Below are positions 39,001 to 45,000 of a stretch of 64,000 nucleotides of DNA, in pieces. Made by a program: the position numbers. The DNA is taken from the NCBI GenBank assembly GCA_021647705.1, contig JAKIUF010000007.1, positions 9,141 through 73,140 of the forward strand. Direction: 5' to 3'. The DNA comes from Gammaproteobacteria bacterium (GTDB lineage: Bacteria > Pseudomonadota > Gammaproteobacteria > SZUA-152). Every line of letters begins with the position of its first letter. Position 1 is the stretch's first letter.

Positions 39001-42000
39001 TCGCATCCATGCAAACCTCCGCAGAATTCAGTACAGGAATAAACATAAATGTAAGCGTGTCCGCCGGGTTAAGCACCAATGTTGCATTTAACGTCGGGTT
39101 TGCCGTCGAAATTGAAGGAAATCCTTCATGGAAACTGGAGCTGGACGACGGTGAAATGGTATTTAAAGGACCAGGCACTGCATTCAACAAAGAAGCCGAA
39201 CTCAAAGGAAAAATTCAAACGTTAATGCTGAAAGAATACAAAATGGCTATTGAAAAATCGTCGGGTTGCAAAATCACAAAAGAAAACATTGGTATTTATG
39301 ACGGTGCTTTAAGTATGAAAAAAGGCTTCAGCATTATGGGAGTTTAATAATGAAAATTATTAAACCTTTTCAACTTGGCGTCCAATCCAGCGTTATCGAG
39401 CACAACAACAAATTTTATTTTGTTACCTCATCCACGCTGGGGATAAACCTGCTGACAGGAAATGTTTTTTTAGAAAGCCAATGGATGGAGGATGCCATAA
39501 ACGGAATGGCTGGAAACTCAATACCCGATACAGGAATGCCTAAACCTTCCGGCGAATACCTGGTATCTGGAAGTTATTATTCACCCAATGTTACACCCGT
39601 CACTGGAGATGAAATAAAAGTACAGTTTGGCACACAAGAAAAAACATTACTCATTTTTGGTGATCGACGATGGAGCAATGGATTCCCCAGCAAGCCGGAA
39701 TTATTCACCACCTGTCCTATCAACTTCAATGGGGCATTTGGTGGGAAAGAATTTATAAAAAACCCAAATGGATTAGGGTTTAAAGATGCACTATTACCTC
39801 GAATAGAAAACCTGAATAATCTCATCACTTCCAGCAGAGACCGGCCTGAACCGGCAGGCTTATCCGTACTTGACCCCGCTTTGCCGCAACGCAGTCGCTA
39901 TCTGGGCTCTTACGATGACCAGTATATGAAAAAGTATTTCCCCGGCTATCCAGCGGATTTTGATTGGCGTTTTTTCCATTGTGCACCACAAGACCAATGG
40001 CACGATAATTACTATCAAGGGAATGAGTCTTTTGAAATCCACAATATGCACCCGGAAAAAACACGTATAGCAGGTAAACTCCCTGGCCTGTATGCCCGAT
40101 GTTTTATCAACAGTAAAATTGATGACAGTCATTCCCGGTTTTCAGAACTTAATATGAACCTGGACACAGTCTGGTTTTTTCCTGAACAGGAATTAGGTCT
40201 GTTGATCTGGCGTGCAACAGTTGAAGTAAAAGATGATGAGGCTTCCGAAATAAAACAGTTGGTTGCTGCCTATGAAAATCGCGCAGATTCCCCACGCAAA
40301 CTGGATCATTATCAAAAAGCACTGGAATTACGCCTCAACAGTGATGACGGCTTCCTCAATAACTTTAAAACTCGTGACCTCATCGCCGAGGGTGAAAAAA
40401 CGGCCATGGCCTTGTTGTTTGAAGATGCACTGGGCGATACTCCTGAACAAAGTGAACTCACCAAAAATCTGTCCGCAAAGGTTGAATCAGTTACTCAGTC
40501 AGTGCAAACCCAGGTAGCCGACAGTATGGATGAACTCCATAAGGGGATTTCCAAAGATAAAGACAACGATATTGCCGCACTCAAGCTCCCTGACATTGAT
40601 GAACTATTGAACAAAAAAAGTGATCTGCCACCCGATGTAGATGTTGATTTATTTAAACAACACCTGGAAGAAATACTGCCGGGAGTCACCAAGGGCGACC
40701 CTAGAGAAATTGATTTTTCTGACTTTTCTTTCAGTAAAATTGACGAAATAATGGCTGAAATGAATCAGTTAATGGTTAAAAAAGAAAAACGGATAGACCA
40801 GGAAATAGATAAGCTAACAGATCAACTCTCTGGACAATTCAACAATTTAGCCGAAATATCAAATGAACTGCCCAAGGAAAGCAAAGATGAAATAGAAAGT
40901 TTACTTTCTCAACTAAACAACATCAAAAATAACGAAAAAAAGCTTTCCTCCCCCTTGCCGCGCCTCAACGCCAATGAAATCACCTCCTCAATGACAGACA
41001 TTGGGTCACAAACAGTTGATGCCATGCAGCAACTCCAGGCTTTAAAAGGCATGGATATAGACAATGAGCAAACGCAACAACTGGAAAAACTTATCGGCAA
41101 CTCATATGACGAAAAAAACAAACAGCTTGAAACGAGCCTGAAAGAAGCTGAAAAAGATTTTCGCTCTCTTTACATAATGTCCGCCCATTTTATGGATAAT
41201 GGTACCCCGCCACATAAAGAAGACCTTGATCAAATCGCCAAACGTTTATTAGACTCGCCACAAAATGCCGCAGAAAAAGACTGGGCATGCATAGATTTAA
41301 GCAACCAGAACCTTGATGGCATTAATCTAAGCGGAGCTTATTTAGAGCAGGTAAATTTTTCTGGCGCAAGCCTGGTAGGAGCAAACTTAAGCGGTGCCAT
41401 TTTATCGCGTGCCAACCTAACGCAAGCAAACTTCACGGGTGCAAATCTTGAAGGGGCTAACATTGGTGCAGTTCATGCCCATAAAACTAACTTTACCGAC
41501 GCCAACCTTCACTCTGCCAAATTGTCCAGAGGTGATTTTACCGGGGCAAACTTTACCCGGGCAACGATTACGGACATAGAGTCCCTGGAAATAATGATTC
41601 AATCCGCCATATTTAATGAAGCCGAATTACCTGACTTCAATTTTATCGAATTAAATATTTCCGATGTCAGCTTTATCGGGGCAAACCTTAGCACAGCATC
41701 TTTCATGAAATGCTCTGTTCATAACTGCGACTTTTCCAATGCTACATTAAACCGAAGCACCTGGGCTGACAGTCAATTGGAGCACTGCCGCTTTGACCAT
41801 GCCGACATGACCAGCAATTGTTTTGTGACAACCGATGATGAATTTACCGCATTTGACAACATGAGCTTTAAAAATGCCTGTGTAGAGAAGTGTAACTTTC
41901 AAAATATGATTTTAAACAAAGCACTTTTTACCAACGCCAGAATGGACGGTGCCATTTTTAATGGTGCCGACTTAACGGGTGCCGACTTCACCAATGCCCT

Positions 42001-45000
42001 GGCAAAATCCACTCAATTCCGGGGCGCAAAATTAACTCATGCCAAAATGGACAATATCAACCTCATGGAAGGCTCCCTGGCCAAAGCTCACCTCTCCAGT
42101 GCATCACTGACCAAAGCCAACCTGTATGCGGTGGACTTCCTCCGGGCAACCCTTGGCAATACAGATTTTAGCGGAGCATACCTTGAAGCTACGATCATTA
42201 AAGATTGGAGACCTTCATAATGGATGGCGTAACACTTTCTCAGCAGGTTAAAGGTGGAGAAATATATCACCAGGAGAATTTCTCCAACCTGCTCTGCCAA
42301 AATCAGGATTACTCCGGCGGCACATTTATTGAAGTCACATTTGATCACTGCGACTTTAGTGCCGCAAACCTTAGCGAAACGACATTCAAGGAATGCAGCT
42401 TTATATCTGCAATATTTAATGCTACAAATTTAGACGATACAAATTTTATCAGCTGCAACCTGTCCAGTGCCAATTTCGATACCGCAAACATGGAATCGAC
42501 CAAACTGATTGAGTCCAACCTCACTGAGGCTGCCATTATAAACACCCACTTGAACAGCAATGTTTTCAATGAGTGTCTTTGTGAAAAAATGACCTTTACC
42601 GGCAGCACTCTGGACACCACTCTATTTTCTGATTGCAACTTGACAAAAGCAGACTTTTCCAAAACCACCATGATAAAAGCAATTTTCTTTGGGAGTCACT
42701 TTAAGGATAATCTTTTTAAAGAAGCGATCATCAACCTCTCTTACTTCCAGAAAGCCAATCTAAAAAATATTGATTTTAGCGACATCGATTTGAATCAATC
42801 TCAATTTTCTGAATGTGAATTAGAAAATTGCAACTTCAATAGCTCACAAATAAAACAAGGTGGTTTTATGCAAACTTCTCTTGTTAAGTGTAATTTCGAT
42901 GGCACAGACCTTGAAGCCGCCATGTTTATGGCATCAGACTTGACCGGTGCCAGCTTTAAAAAAGCAAATCTGGCCATGGCTAATTTGCAAAAAACCAAAC
43001 TCATTGGCACTGATTTTTCCAATGCCAATATGGAAATGGCAAATCTATCAGAAGCCACTGCTAACCTGAGTTTTTTTGTTGGTGCCAACCTTACCGATGC
43101 AGATTTGTCACACACCACAATATACGAATCTGATTTTACTAATAGCAATATGTTTCGCACTAAAATGCATGAAACACTGGATGCAAAAAACATCTGGGAA
43201 GGTGCAAATAAATCTGCCGCCATAGGCACAAACAAACAACGCTTAACCGCCGAACTATGGAGCAAAAAATGAATCCAGAACCTAACAACATTCTCCCATT
43301 TCAAACCCCGACTGACGGTGTTTTGCAAACCGCACAGGTAGTGTCTATCAGCGACAAAGGCATCATTATTTCTATTTCCGGCATTGAACTTACCACAAAA
43401 GTCGCCTTTAGCTGCCTGGTACAACCTTTGGTAGGTGACATTGTTCTATGGACCCCATCAGAGACAGAGGGAAATTATATCCTCGCTATCGCCAGCCGGC
43501 CTGACAGCCAGGATATGGCCCTCACCTTTCCGGGCAACACCACACTGCATAGCACAGAAGGCTCAATCAATATTCTTTCCAAACAGTCCGTCACGCTTGC
43601 TGCCGGAAAAAAGCTGACATGCCTTGCTGAAAAAACCGTTCATAAAAGCCAACAAACTCTCATTGACTACGAAAAAGTGACTGCCAAGGGCAGCAACCTG
43701 GACGCATCGTTTAACAATATTCGATTATTTAGCGACATGCTCAATACCATGGCAAAACAGGTCATGATGAAAGCGAAAAATTATTTCCGTCATACTGAGG
43801 ATTATGATGAAATCAAGGCAAAACAAATGACTCGTTCGGCCAAGGGCGTTTATTCTGTGGATTCAAAATATACCGTCATGGTCAGCAAAAAAGACACCAA
43901 AATCGATGGTGAACGTATACACATGGGCTAAAGCCCATTTACGAGGATATAGAGTATGTTTGCAAACTGTTCATTAAACGGCATGAATATGGCTATGCCA
44001 GATGTATGTTTAACACCCATTCCAACACCCACTGGGCCCGTTCCCACTCCTATCCCCTATCCCAACACCGCTCAATTAATGATGGCGGTAGGGTTTAATG
44101 TCAAACATTTAATCAGTATGATGCCCGCCCATAACTTGGGCACATCCATACCATTGAGCATGGGAGACAATGCGGGTGTTAACGGTGGAGTTGCTTCCGG
44201 TATGTTTATGGGCAAGTCCAGCCATATAAAGGGCAGCGTTAAAATTTTCACCGGAGGAATGCCTTCTACGCGCATGCTTGACCCAACAATTCAGAACCTG
44301 ACCAATGCCCCAGGGGGAATGACATTGGCACCTTCACAAACCAAAGTAATCATCATGAGTTAAGCTCATTTTTCAACGACAATATATTAACAGGATATAA
44401 AATGCCGGAAAATCAAAAATCAGAAAATGATCAACAGAAGGTGCAGGTGCATGTATCACCCGACCTGGACTATGCCTATAGAGATATGGTTAATATTTTC
44501 GTTGGCACAGGCGATGTTGTATTTGAATTTGGAAACCATCACCGGTCGATGCCCGGCAATATCACTGTATCGAATCGAATCGTGATGACTTATGCCAATG
44601 CTTTTGACCTTCAGCAAAAACTACAGCAGGTATTGATGGAAGCACAAAAACAAATGGCCCAGCAGATGCAACAGCAGCAAGCAACACACAAAACATCACA
44701 GGAATAATTGGTTCTAATATTATCGATAACGATTGAGATTTAGGCCTGACTGCACGCCCTATTGATTCCATGGCAGTGGTGAATACTCCACCGGCTCAAA
44801 GCCAGTGGCTTCGAGTTGCGACTAAAAGCCGGGTTGATCGCCCCTACGACCGATTGCCCCCTCCCTCGAAACAGGGAGAGGGGGTAAAAACAACTGCGCC
44901 GCCTAAAGACCTAGAATTTTAAATCCCTTATTGAAAAATGTTAAATGACTGAATATTCTATCTGGTATTTAAAGAACAATACTTCCCGTTACCAATAATG

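Follow-up and report, generated by a model that had tools for sequence, protein, structure and literature searches.

What does a string of genes downstream of vgrG contribute to a T6SS when it seems to hold no toxin of its own? The question is raised here by an uncultured gammaproteobacterial MAG, from which a 64-kb stretch (the window) was analysed. Six ORFs on the + strand are concerned, namely vgrG (36054-39347) and, directly 3' of it, a gene string that ends with a gene for a 101-aa protein. The ORF positions given in the earlier note (39350-44707) were all correct and every domain assignment was upheld by Pfam, whereas its view that the function of these genes is unresolved is out of date, as the homologous system of Serratia marcescens has been dissected (PMC13373197) and the DUF2169-PIPY pair has been treated in PMC11883445. 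Four defining domains occur tightly coupled and in canonical order 3' of the long vgrG, i.e., DUF2169-pentapeptide, pentapeptide, DUF3540, and a small DUF4150. Five features of a Class III Tvp system were found, namely a DUF2169 protein, a pentapeptide fusion together with a separate TvpB, a long TvpC of the DUF3540 rather than the DUF6484 type, an effector-less PIPY PAAR, and a long upstream VgrG, and the entire gene string is kept across 67 genome loci. As judged from its sequence, the cassette belongs to Class III of the Tvp systems (TvpAB-TvpB-TvpC-Paar) and corresponds to TagAB/B/C/D of Burkholderia. The joint reading, in which this Class III Tvp module serves the T6SS with VgrG as the payload and the 101-aa protein as a partner of the tip cap, has in our estimate a probability of roughly 0.7.

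The first gene, tvpAB (39350..42220, + strand; tagAB type), starts 2 nt past the vgrG stop and encodes a 956-aa protein consisting of a DUF2169 domain, a linker, and about 310 aa of pentapeptide repeats. DUF2169 (PF09937) covers residues 59-288 with 223 bits, the cut-off being 25 (E 7.3e-66), and pentapeptide repeats (PF00805, PF13599) were matched by Pfam over approximately residues 640-950 and over the entire 350-aa product of the following gene. The linker had been described as a coiled coil of about 250 aa. It actually spans about 350 aa (residues 289-640), and while its composition is helix-favouring and charged, a coiled coil is not established because the heptad-like pattern was confined to approximately residues 480-570 in a crude scan. 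The second gene, tvpB (42220..43272, + strand), encodes exclusively pentapeptide repeats according to Pfam and, as previously noticed, overlaps tvpAB by 1 nt, with its ATG lying on the tvpAB stop (TAATG at 42218-42222); the identical overlap occurs in locus L001. TvpAB shares 24-28% identity with Burkholderia TagAB-5 and the Enterobacter DUF2169 protein, and TvpB shares 25-27% with TagB-5 and its Enterobacter homologue.

Two roles had been proposed for the pentapeptide proteins, one as adaptors or chaperones that serve the VgrG tip, the other as secreted cargo that mimics DNA or interacts with gyrase. The former is essentially what experiments have demonstrated in the homologous Serratia system, where TvpAB, TvpB, and Paar1 co-purify with VgrG1 or TvpC, where TvpAB, TvpB, TvpC, and Paar1 are all needed for VgrG1-dependent firing, and where secreted TvpAB or TvpB was never detected (PMC13373197). 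The latter found no support in this locus. TvpAB and TvpB do share with Qnr and MfpA the generic right-handed beta-helix repeat common to all pentapeptide proteins, and the NCBIfam Qnr and MfpA models gave sub-threshold matches, but these lie at 35-86 bits against curated cut-offs of 240-500 (Qnr 86 vs 240, MfpA 62 vs 360), and unrelated pentapeptide families (HetL, PipB2) score equally well or better. Published models, moreover, place the solenoids around the spike tip (PMC13373197). A Qnr/MfpA-type function is, in our opinion, extremely improbable.

Yet a TvpB homologue from Pantoea ananatis, TseG, has been reported to be secreted (PMC10933656). Under the TseG/TsiG model, TvpB at least, or both pentapeptide proteins, would be secreted effectors with the DUF3540 protein as immunity. 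The Pantoea pentapeptide gene lies 3' of a DUF2169 gene, the appearance of its product in supernatants depends on VgrG1 and Hcp1, and the same product slows the growth of E. coli, an effect relieved by the next gene (PMC10933656); by position, this gene pair is homologous to tvpB and tvpC. Besides the failure to find either pentapeptide protein secreted in Serratia, TvpB and TvpC are needed there for Hcp secretion, i.e., for firing, which would be unexpected for a cargo-immunity pair, and TvpC has been modelled as a VgrG-like trimer (PMC13373197). In the present locus, TvpB shows ordinary divergence, and neither TvpB nor TvpC matched a Pfam toxin domain or an immunity family of Pfam or NCBIfam, with zero NCBIfam matches of any kind for TvpC. 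We consider the effector-immunity arrangement quite unlikely and regard TvpAB and TvpB as putative adaptors of the spike tip.

The third gene, tvpC, may start at either of two positions on the + strand, giving a product of 220 aa (43269..43931) or 224 aa (43257..43931). The start at 43269 is more probable because it creates an ATGA overlap, is preceded by GGAG 6 nt upstream, and yields an N-terminus that agrees with those of the homologues. TvpC covers the full DUF3540 profile (PF12059, positions 1-199, E 2e-46) and ends in IDGERIHMG, which is invariant in alignment A3; comparison of TvpC with VgrG by BLASTP and hhalign gave zero significant similarity. Next comes the gene for the PAAR-like DUF4150/PIPY tip protein (43956..44363, + strand; 135 aa; Pfam Tox-PAAR-like/DUF4150 PF13665, E 7.8e-34), which bears a TPIPYPN motif, is not extended by an effector domain, and shares 47-48% identity with the DUF4150 proteins of Burkholderia and Enterobacter. 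Its description as minimal and toxin-free is correct. However, this is no oddity, as small PAARs are the norm for Class III systems, in which they are paired with long VgrGs (PMC13373197).

Pairwise homologues of each component are present in Burkholderia savannae (TagAB-5, TagB-5, DUF3540, DUF4150) and on Enterobacter cloacae pIMI-6, whose cassette has the same layout and is the nearest sequence comparator obtained (25-48% identity). With the exception of PAAR, identity to the comparator Tvp proteins is low (19-28%). Since megablast found no match in E. coli genomes, the locus is not one of the enterobacterial models. Serratia marcescens Db10 (VgrG1, TvpAB, TvpB, TvpC, Paar1; PMC13373197) has the same four families in the same order 3' of a long vgrG, but in the present locus neither a vai1-like nor a 2246-like gene lies between vgrG and tvpAB. 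Also in comparison with Serratia, the T6SS cluster of this locus has one vgrG seen, a fused TssBC, two hcp genes, no ClpV, and an additional conserved DUF3467-like gene 3' of PAAR. In Burkholderia T6SS-5, the homologous cassette (tagAB-5/tagB-5/tagC-5/tagD-5) lies 3' of the gene for an unusually long VgrG-5 (994 aa in B. savannae), the PAAR gene is followed directly by tssJ with no DUF3467-like ORF, and ClpV is present. The arrangement also agrees with synteny type C of Sachar et al. (PMC11883445), which combines a multidomain DUF2169 protein bearing a C-terminal pentapeptide extension with a DUF3540 neighbour and a DUF4150 protein containing P(I/V)P(Y/F). Types A and B were characterised by experiment in that study, whereas type C was merely catalogued, and no DUF3467 member was listed. 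The core cassette is already explained by the known Tvp system, and its products are properly annotated as TvpAB, TvpB, TvpC, and PAAR of the PIPY type. Specific to this locus are the 101-aa gene and a putative membrane segment in VgrG.

The claim that the gene string has no recognisable toxin holds within 39350-44707, but it overlooked the C-terminal region of about 630 aa in the adjoining VgrG. In the relatives examined, no effector-like gene was found 3' of PAAR; the large ORFs at this place in relatives lacking the 101-aa gene (pseudouridine synthase, methyltransferase, ShlB, binding protein, and sensor phosphatase) were considered as effectors and rejected. The vgrG gene (36054..39347, + strand) encodes a 1097-aa protein (Pfam Phage_GPD, Phage_base_V; TIGR03361) whose gp27/gp5 core extends to about residue 460. 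This is followed by an Ig-like beta domain (approximately residues 513-590, a weak Pfam match), the motif GNIYDFGGYWNYNLGNSY (residues 702-719, invariant columns in alignment A2), a glycine-zipper hydrophobic hairpin (residues 746-800, recognised by hydropathy and GxxxG counts), beta-prism repeats (approximately residues 900-1040, AF2 strands 902-1038), and a C-terminus that reads FSIMGV. Within residues 746-800, Gly and Ala make up 29 of 55 positions, the pattern GxxxGxxxGxxxG is present (G757, G761, G765, G769, also G781, G785), and the Kyte-Doolittle 19-residue mean peaks at 2.0. AF2 predicted helices at residues 747-771 and 778-801 with pLDDT 26-40 in a model of the monomer, the native protein being trimeric; with pLDDT < 50 over residues 695-823 and 990-1097, the model is usable for secondary structure only. 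Tandem GxxxG motifs in hydrophobic helices of bilayer length, the mark of a glycine zipper, are accordingly found in VgrG, the helices being predicted at low confidence. Membrane-active toxins of the glycine-zipper type, e.g., the C-terminal fragment of Tse5 and VacA, contain repeated GxxxG in Gly/Ala-rich hydrophobic helices. The GxxxG spacing in VgrG is alike, but there is no sequence homology with these toxins, and the putatively active segment is an insertion within the VgrG spike rather than a separate toxin domain. In at least 14 VgrG homologues at 35-92% identity, a comparable double hydrophobic segment is found at this position, with variable sequence. Because its C-terminal region bears a glycine-zipper hairpin of conserved position, VgrG is the foremost candidate for the toxin that the cassette lacks.

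The region may instead be purely structural or adhesive, consisting of a longer prism plus the Ig-like domain, in which case the real toxins would be Hcp- or spike-borne and encoded elsewhere in the genome, of which the window covers 64 kb, and the cassette would merely permit spike assembly. Consistent with this, the C-terminal region contains no Pfam toxin domain and has no relative among PDB sequences, and the hairpin is missing in some VgrGs of the clade, as in the shorter protein of locus L005, where the cassette and the 101-aa gene are nevertheless retained. The Serratia VgrG1-Paar1 spike also delivers Hcp-dependent cargo, with a VgrG1 that has no classical toxin domain (PMC13373197), and two hcp genes are present in the cluster studied here. 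On the other hand, it is hard to see a structural reason for about 55 Gly/Ala-rich residues that form a double hydrophobic segment in a soluble spike, and the conservation of its position across such divergent homologues also speaks against a passive role. We regard the structural explanation as possible but doubtful and favor VgrG as the putative payload. Foldseek matched VgrG structures over the N-terminal ~640 residues only, and no immunity-like membrane protein was seen beside vgrG, in contrast to Vai1 of Serratia. Serratia VgrG1 has been implicated in membrane depolarisation (PMC13373197), but it is 786 aa long and has an extended prism only, with neither the Ig-like domain nor the hairpin. 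The C-terminal domain of Burkholderia VgrG-5 is a membrane-active effector that drives host cell fusion; the BLASTP alignment of our VgrG with B. savannae TssI ends at about residue 541, and the C-terminal regions have no detectable similarity.

The 101-aa gene (44402..44707, + strand) starts 38 nt past the PAAR stop with AGGA upstream. Its product had been said to have no known fold, which is true insofar as neither the PDB nor BFVD yielded a significant structural neighbour of its AF2 model (pLDDT 72.5). In this model, the N-terminus is disordered, three strands run antiparallel, and the C-terminus forms a long helix rich in Q. It does, however, belong to a family. With 29.9 bits against Pfam DUF3467 (gathering score 25), and with DUF3467 matched by 43 of 43 tested homologues at E <= 1 (best 6.4e-9), the protein is by profile comparison a divergent DUF3467 member. 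A search of 1.84 billion proteins with the family profile yielded 63 cluster representatives at E <= 1e-3, and by this measure the subfamily is closed; 61 of them are stand-alone proteins of ~45-250 aa, and the sole two exceptions, weak low-complexity matches with E > 5e-4, were dismissed as informative domain fusions. The gene lies directly 3' of PAAR in all seven loci of a first set and subsequently in 34 of 61 related marine loci, and wherever present it adjoins PAAR. Since the other 27 loci do not have it, and neither does the second cassette of the tandem pair in locus L008, the gene is not obligatory for Class III function. Its codon changes relative to L001 (41 synonymous, 3 non-synonymous) indicate strong purifying selection. 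The protein retains 96, 74, and 60% identity in comparisons in which VgrG retains 83, 37, and 39%, and it diverges at approximately the rate of PAAR, far below the rates of TvpB and TvpC. Because it is invariably next to PAAR, evolves as slowly as PAAR, and has no export signal, we infer that the 101-aa protein is an extra, clade-specific, non-secreted partner of PAAR or the tip cap.

The protein is small, has no assigned fold, is dispensable in many related loci, and is encoded at the operon end, a frequent location of genes for effectors and immunity proteins. Instead of being a partner in spike assembly, it could also act as a regulator, confer immunity, or be secreted as cargo. Effector and immunity genes normally diversify rapidly, whereas this gene is among the most conserved of the cluster. 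The protein has no signal peptide or TM segment by which it could protect against a membrane-acting toxin, Pfam revealed no toxin or DNA-binding domain in it, and the tandem cassettes of L008 share just one copy. These roles seem unlikely to us, and the tip-cap partner remains our preferred assignment. A GC-rich hairpin (44854..44887, no strand assigned; -22.6 kcal/mol, z -2.6) in the space that separates the cassette from the convergent gene downstream is a possible operon end; a consensus scan 3' of the cassette found no canonical intrinsic (T-tail) terminator.

How might these proteins work together? In Serratia marcescens, a two-step assembly on TvpC and then on VgrG is backed by co-purification, deletion, and point-mutant data (PMC13373197), and PIPY domains are known to be chaperoned by DUF2169 (PMC11883445). 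By homology, the TvpC trimer would mimic the VgrG tip through an OB-fold together with a beta-prism, as in the published structure models, and the hydrophobic PIPY-type PAAR would sit on its tip. The DUF2169 domain of TvpAB would cover PAAR while its helical linker and pentapeptide solenoid wrap the prism, and TvpB would act as a "seat belt" that closes the cap. The pre-formed TvpAB-TvpB-PAAR cap would then pass from TvpC to the true, unusually long VgrG, allowing baseplate assembly and firing, with the Tvp proteins retained in the cell. In this locus in particular, VgrG itself may be the payload, its two-helix hairpin inserting into and depolarising or otherwise perturbing the target membrane, and the cap may additionally keep the hairpin soluble until firing. 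More tentatively, the DUF3467-like protein could be a sixth subunit in a marine Class III branch, attached either to the PIPY tip or to the TvpC/VgrG trimer, and VgrG could be a new specialised effector whose hairpin produces the membrane lesion.

No T6SS literature was found for a DUF3467-like gene, and such a gene is absent from the studied comparator systems, although dozens of uncultured lineages, marine and sediment ones, have it fixed beside PAAR. Its small size and PAAR-like constraint make it a cheap and well-defined candidate for a missing part in the assembly of the spike tip. With the VgrG hairpin comes a testable answer to the question posed by Serratia: by what means does a VgrG that has no toxin domain depolarise membranes, and why must spikes of this kind be enclosed by a cap? 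If true, it would provide a molecular basis for the VgrG-associated membrane toxicity that has so far been unexplained in Serratia.

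The cassette that follows vgrG at 39350-44707 is, judged by its sequence, a marine variant of a Class III Tvp module. We filed it in this class because every defining feature of Class III that sequence can test was found in it by Pfam, and because of its homology to both comparators, the annotated TagAB-5, TagB-5, DUF3540, and DUF4150 proteins of Burkholderia savannae (tagAB, tagB, tagC, and tagD being the older Burkholderia names of the tvp genes) and a Serratia-like cassette of Enterobacter cloacae pIMI-6. Each cassette protein except the 101-aa one has a detectable homologue in both, with identities of 24-28% for TvpAB, 25-27% for TvpB, 19-25% for TvpC, and 47-48% for the PAAR-like protein.

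All genes of the module lie on the forward strand in a compact array. The vgrG gene (36054-39347; 1097 aa in the ORF list) is separated by 2 nt from tvpAB (39350-42220; 956 aa), whose product carries DUF2169 at residues 59-288 (E 7e-66) and pentapeptide repeats at about 640-950, and tvpAB overlaps by one base (TAATG) with tvpB (42220-43272, alternative start 42205), which encodes pentapeptide repeats over the whole protein. The DUF3540 gene tvpC (43257-43931; 224 aa, E 2e-46) probably starts at 43269, giving an ATGA overlap with tvpB; this candidate start has GGAG 6 nt upstream and agrees with the N-termini of homologues. After a gap of 24 nt comes the PAAR-like gene (43956-44363; 135 aa; Tox-PAAR-like/DUF4150, E 8e-34), the product of which contains TPIPYPN, and after another 38 nt the 101-aa gene (44402-44707), which matches DUF3467 with 29.9 bits (gathering score 25). 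The ORF list matched the coordinates of the earlier note exactly and its observation as a whole was confirmed, except that a coiled coil of about 250 aa in the 956-aa protein could not be established, because the heptad-like pattern is limited, in a crude scan, to about residues 480-570 of a linker of about 350 aa in which helix formers and charge are abundant and Pro and Gly scarce. Between the cassette and a convergent FAD-binding gene lies a GC-rich hairpin (44854-44887; -22.6 kcal/mol, z -2.6), with no T-tail on either strand. The GC content falls from about 0.49 to 0.41-0.44 over about 38500-48000, from within the vgrG C-terminal region across the cassette and the downstream genes, as would fit a module that had been exchanged independently of the core T6SS genes.

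The function of this gene string, regarded as unresolved in the earlier note, has since been addressed by publications of 2025-2026 (PMC11883445, PMC13373197). DUF2169 proteins chaperone DUF4150 'PIPY' domains onto VgrG, and the succession of a DUF2169-pentapeptide fusion, a pentapeptide protein, DUF3540, and DUF4150 has been catalogued as 'synteny type C' (Sachar et al., PMC11883445). The same arrangement was studied in Serratia marcescens and given the name Class III Tvp system (Monlezun, Earl and Coulthurst, PMC13373197); there, VgrG1-dependent killing and Hcp secretion need each of TvpAB, TvpB, TvpC, and Paar1. In that study, TvpAB, TvpB, and Paar1 were present and TvpC absent in the His-VgrG1 pull-down, and the same three proteins were present and VgrG1 absent in the HA-TvpC pull-down; the TvpC complex assembles without VgrG1, and the VgrG1 complex fails without TvpC. 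In the published model, TvpC is a trimer whose OB-fold and beta-prism imitate the tip of VgrG, the tip being wrapped by TvpAB and fastened by TvpB. Class III modules typically go together with long VgrGs and with small PAARs that carry no effector (PMC13373197). By homology, the cassette in the window would be assembled through the same steps. Comparison of its TvpC with VgrG by BLASTP and hhalign gave no similarity indicative of mimicry.

The pentapeptide proteins had been proposed to be either secreted cargo, possibly mimicking DNA, or adaptors or chaperones. The Serratia Tvp data support the latter, and secretion of TvpAB and TvpB was never detected there (PMC13373197). A DNA mimic of the Qnr or MfpA type did not hold up: both proteins match many NCBIfam pentapeptide models, all far under the curated cut-offs (best Qnr 86 vs 240 bits; MfpA 62 vs 360 bits), so membership in either family was rejected, and unrelated families such as HetL and PipB2 score equal to or above them. 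A role of TvpB as a secreted effector, with TvpC as its immunity protein, would follow the claim for Pantoea ananatis that the pentapeptide gene after the DUF2169 gene ('TseG') encodes a secreted effector and the next gene ('TsiG') its immunity (PMC10933656), as by gene order and domain these two are TvpB and TvpC homologues. However, the Serratia data contradict this reading of the homologues (PMC13373197), and we consider it to be of low probability. The two papers assign incompatible functions to TvpB and TvpC homologues, and TseG goes unmentioned in the later one.

No toxin domain was found within 39350-44707, the place after PAAR is taken in relatives by the 101-aa gene or else by an unrelated gene of housekeeping or regulatory function, and no immunity-like gene adjoins vgrG. 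Effectors may also be encoded elsewhere in the genome, outside the 64 kb covered. Past its gp5 OB-fold, the VgrG itself extends for about 630 residues, comprising an Ig-like beta domain (about 513-590) with a weak Pfam hit and a model pLDDT of 70-84, the segment GNIYDFGGYWNYNLGNSY at 702-719, which is fully or almost fully conserved among 41 VgrGs (32-94% identity), and, just downstream of it, a variable hydrophobic hairpin, followed at about 900-1040 by beta-prism-like repeats in the AF2 model. Within residues 746-800, Gly and Ala make up 29 of the 55 positions, the hydropathy reaches 2.0, and glycines are spaced as G757/G761/G765/G769 and G781/G785; AF2 places helices at 747-771 and 778-801, both with pLDDT <50. 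At least 14 homologues (35-92% identity) have a double hydrophobic segment at this position, its sequence not being conserved, and the hairpin is missing from shorter VgrGs of the clade, e.g., that of Marinicellulosiphila. Homologues of the C-terminal region are limited to environmental Gammaproteobacteria, Desulfobacterota, and a few others, and the region has no relative in the PDB. We infer from these features that the VgrG may be a specialised membrane-active spike, the hairpin of which would also be kept soluble by the Tvp cap as it encloses the tip. Parallels without homology are Burkholderia VgrG-5, which acts in host membrane fusion and to which no similarity was seen past residue 541, and Serratia VgrG1, which is implicated in membrane depolarisation with no identifiable toxin domain (PMC13373197).

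The host is an uncultured marine gammaproteobacterium. A protein of 'MAG: Gammaproteobacteria bacterium' matches its 101-aa protein at 100% identity, the best genome locus is in MAG S013_42 (TvpC identity 96%), and the search gave no E. coli match to the window. A complete T6SS cluster (19103-44707) ends on its 3' side with the cassette. Its gene order is tssA, tssB, tssC, hcp, tssJ, tssK, tssL, tssM, fused tssB-tssC, second hcp, tssE, tssF, and tssG, and no ClpV/TssH gene was found within it. The fusion is a single 589-aa ORF (29974-31743) joining TssB (VipA) and TssC (VipB, VipB_2) domains, followed by the second hcp (31766-32248); the cluster also contains, ahead of the fusion, an unfused tssB/tssC/hcp set (20771-23679), and the fusion and second hcp are kept in the related loci L001, L003, and L005. 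Between tssE and tssF, about 650 bp (32671-33320) lack any ORF of at least 100 aa; the spacing in L001, an 83%-identical relative, is 5 nt. A two-partner secretion pair, an ShlB-type transporter and a 2870-aa TPS-domain exoprotein, adjoins the cluster on the reverse strand (8499-19123), and an ShlB gene directly follows the cassette in two distant relatives (L003, 18758-23327; L048, 11104-12849), which suggests a recurrent T6SS-TPS linkage.

The conserved 101-aa gene was the least expected result. It follows PAAR in all seven loci first examined, three reached via VgrG (83, 37, and 39% identity) and four via the 101-aa protein, the latter including a Chitinispirillaceae and an Ectothiorhodospiraceae MAG. 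Scanning a genome collection with an alignment of TvpC yielded 67 loci, mostly from marine or sediment MAGs, together with Marinicellulosiphila, Psychrosphaera, Marinospirillum, Desulfobulbus elongatus, strain HdN1, and Sodalis. Among the 61 with enough downstream sequence (±10 kb per locus), hmmsearch of the ORFs placed the gene directly 3' of PAAR in 34, and its presence is clade-structured in a neighbour-joining tree of TvpC and PAAR. Among culturable carriers, Marinicellulosiphila megalodicopiae TOYAMA8 has both the cassette and this gene, as does Desulfobulbus elongatus DSM 2908. No match was found in the Burkholderia and Enterobacter comparators at E <= 10. In one Ectothiorhodospiraceae MAG locus (L008, 1264-19127, on a contig shared with L049), two vgrG-tvpAB-tvpB-tvpC-PAAR cassettes stand in tandem, and the DUF3467-like gene follows the first and is missing from the second.

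The family is small and closed, with 63 cluster representatives at E <= 1e-3 among 1.84 billion proteins, all stand-alone and of about 45-250 aa except for two weak low-complexity matches, and all 43 tested members match DUF3467 at E <= 1; the only paper mentioning DUF3467 is unrelated to T6SS. In the AF2 model (pLDDT 72.5), for which Foldseek returned nothing significant, the N-terminus is disordered and the fold is made of three antiparallel strands and a long helix rich in Q. The protein has neither signal peptide nor TM segment, and its invariant polar residues are H17, R27, D28, N31, E42, N45, H47, and R59.

This gene is among the most conserved in the cluster. Identities to L001, L003, and L005 are 96, 74, and 60% for the 101-aa protein, 83, 37, and 39% for VgrG, and 81, 44, and 33% for TvpAB. 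Relative to L001, it has 41 synonymous and 3 non-synonymous codon changes, and PAAR has 41 and 4, tvpC 53 and 37, and tvpB 102 and 66. Such slow, PAAR-like evolution speaks against a role as effector or immunity protein and for one as a partner that binds the conserved spike tip, to which we give a probability of about one half. The core cassette is already explained by the published Tvp work. The features particular to the marine variant are concrete and testable: a sixth gene, strongly constrained and so far undescribed, and a VgrG, served by this cassette, whose interior carries a glycine-zipper hairpin.
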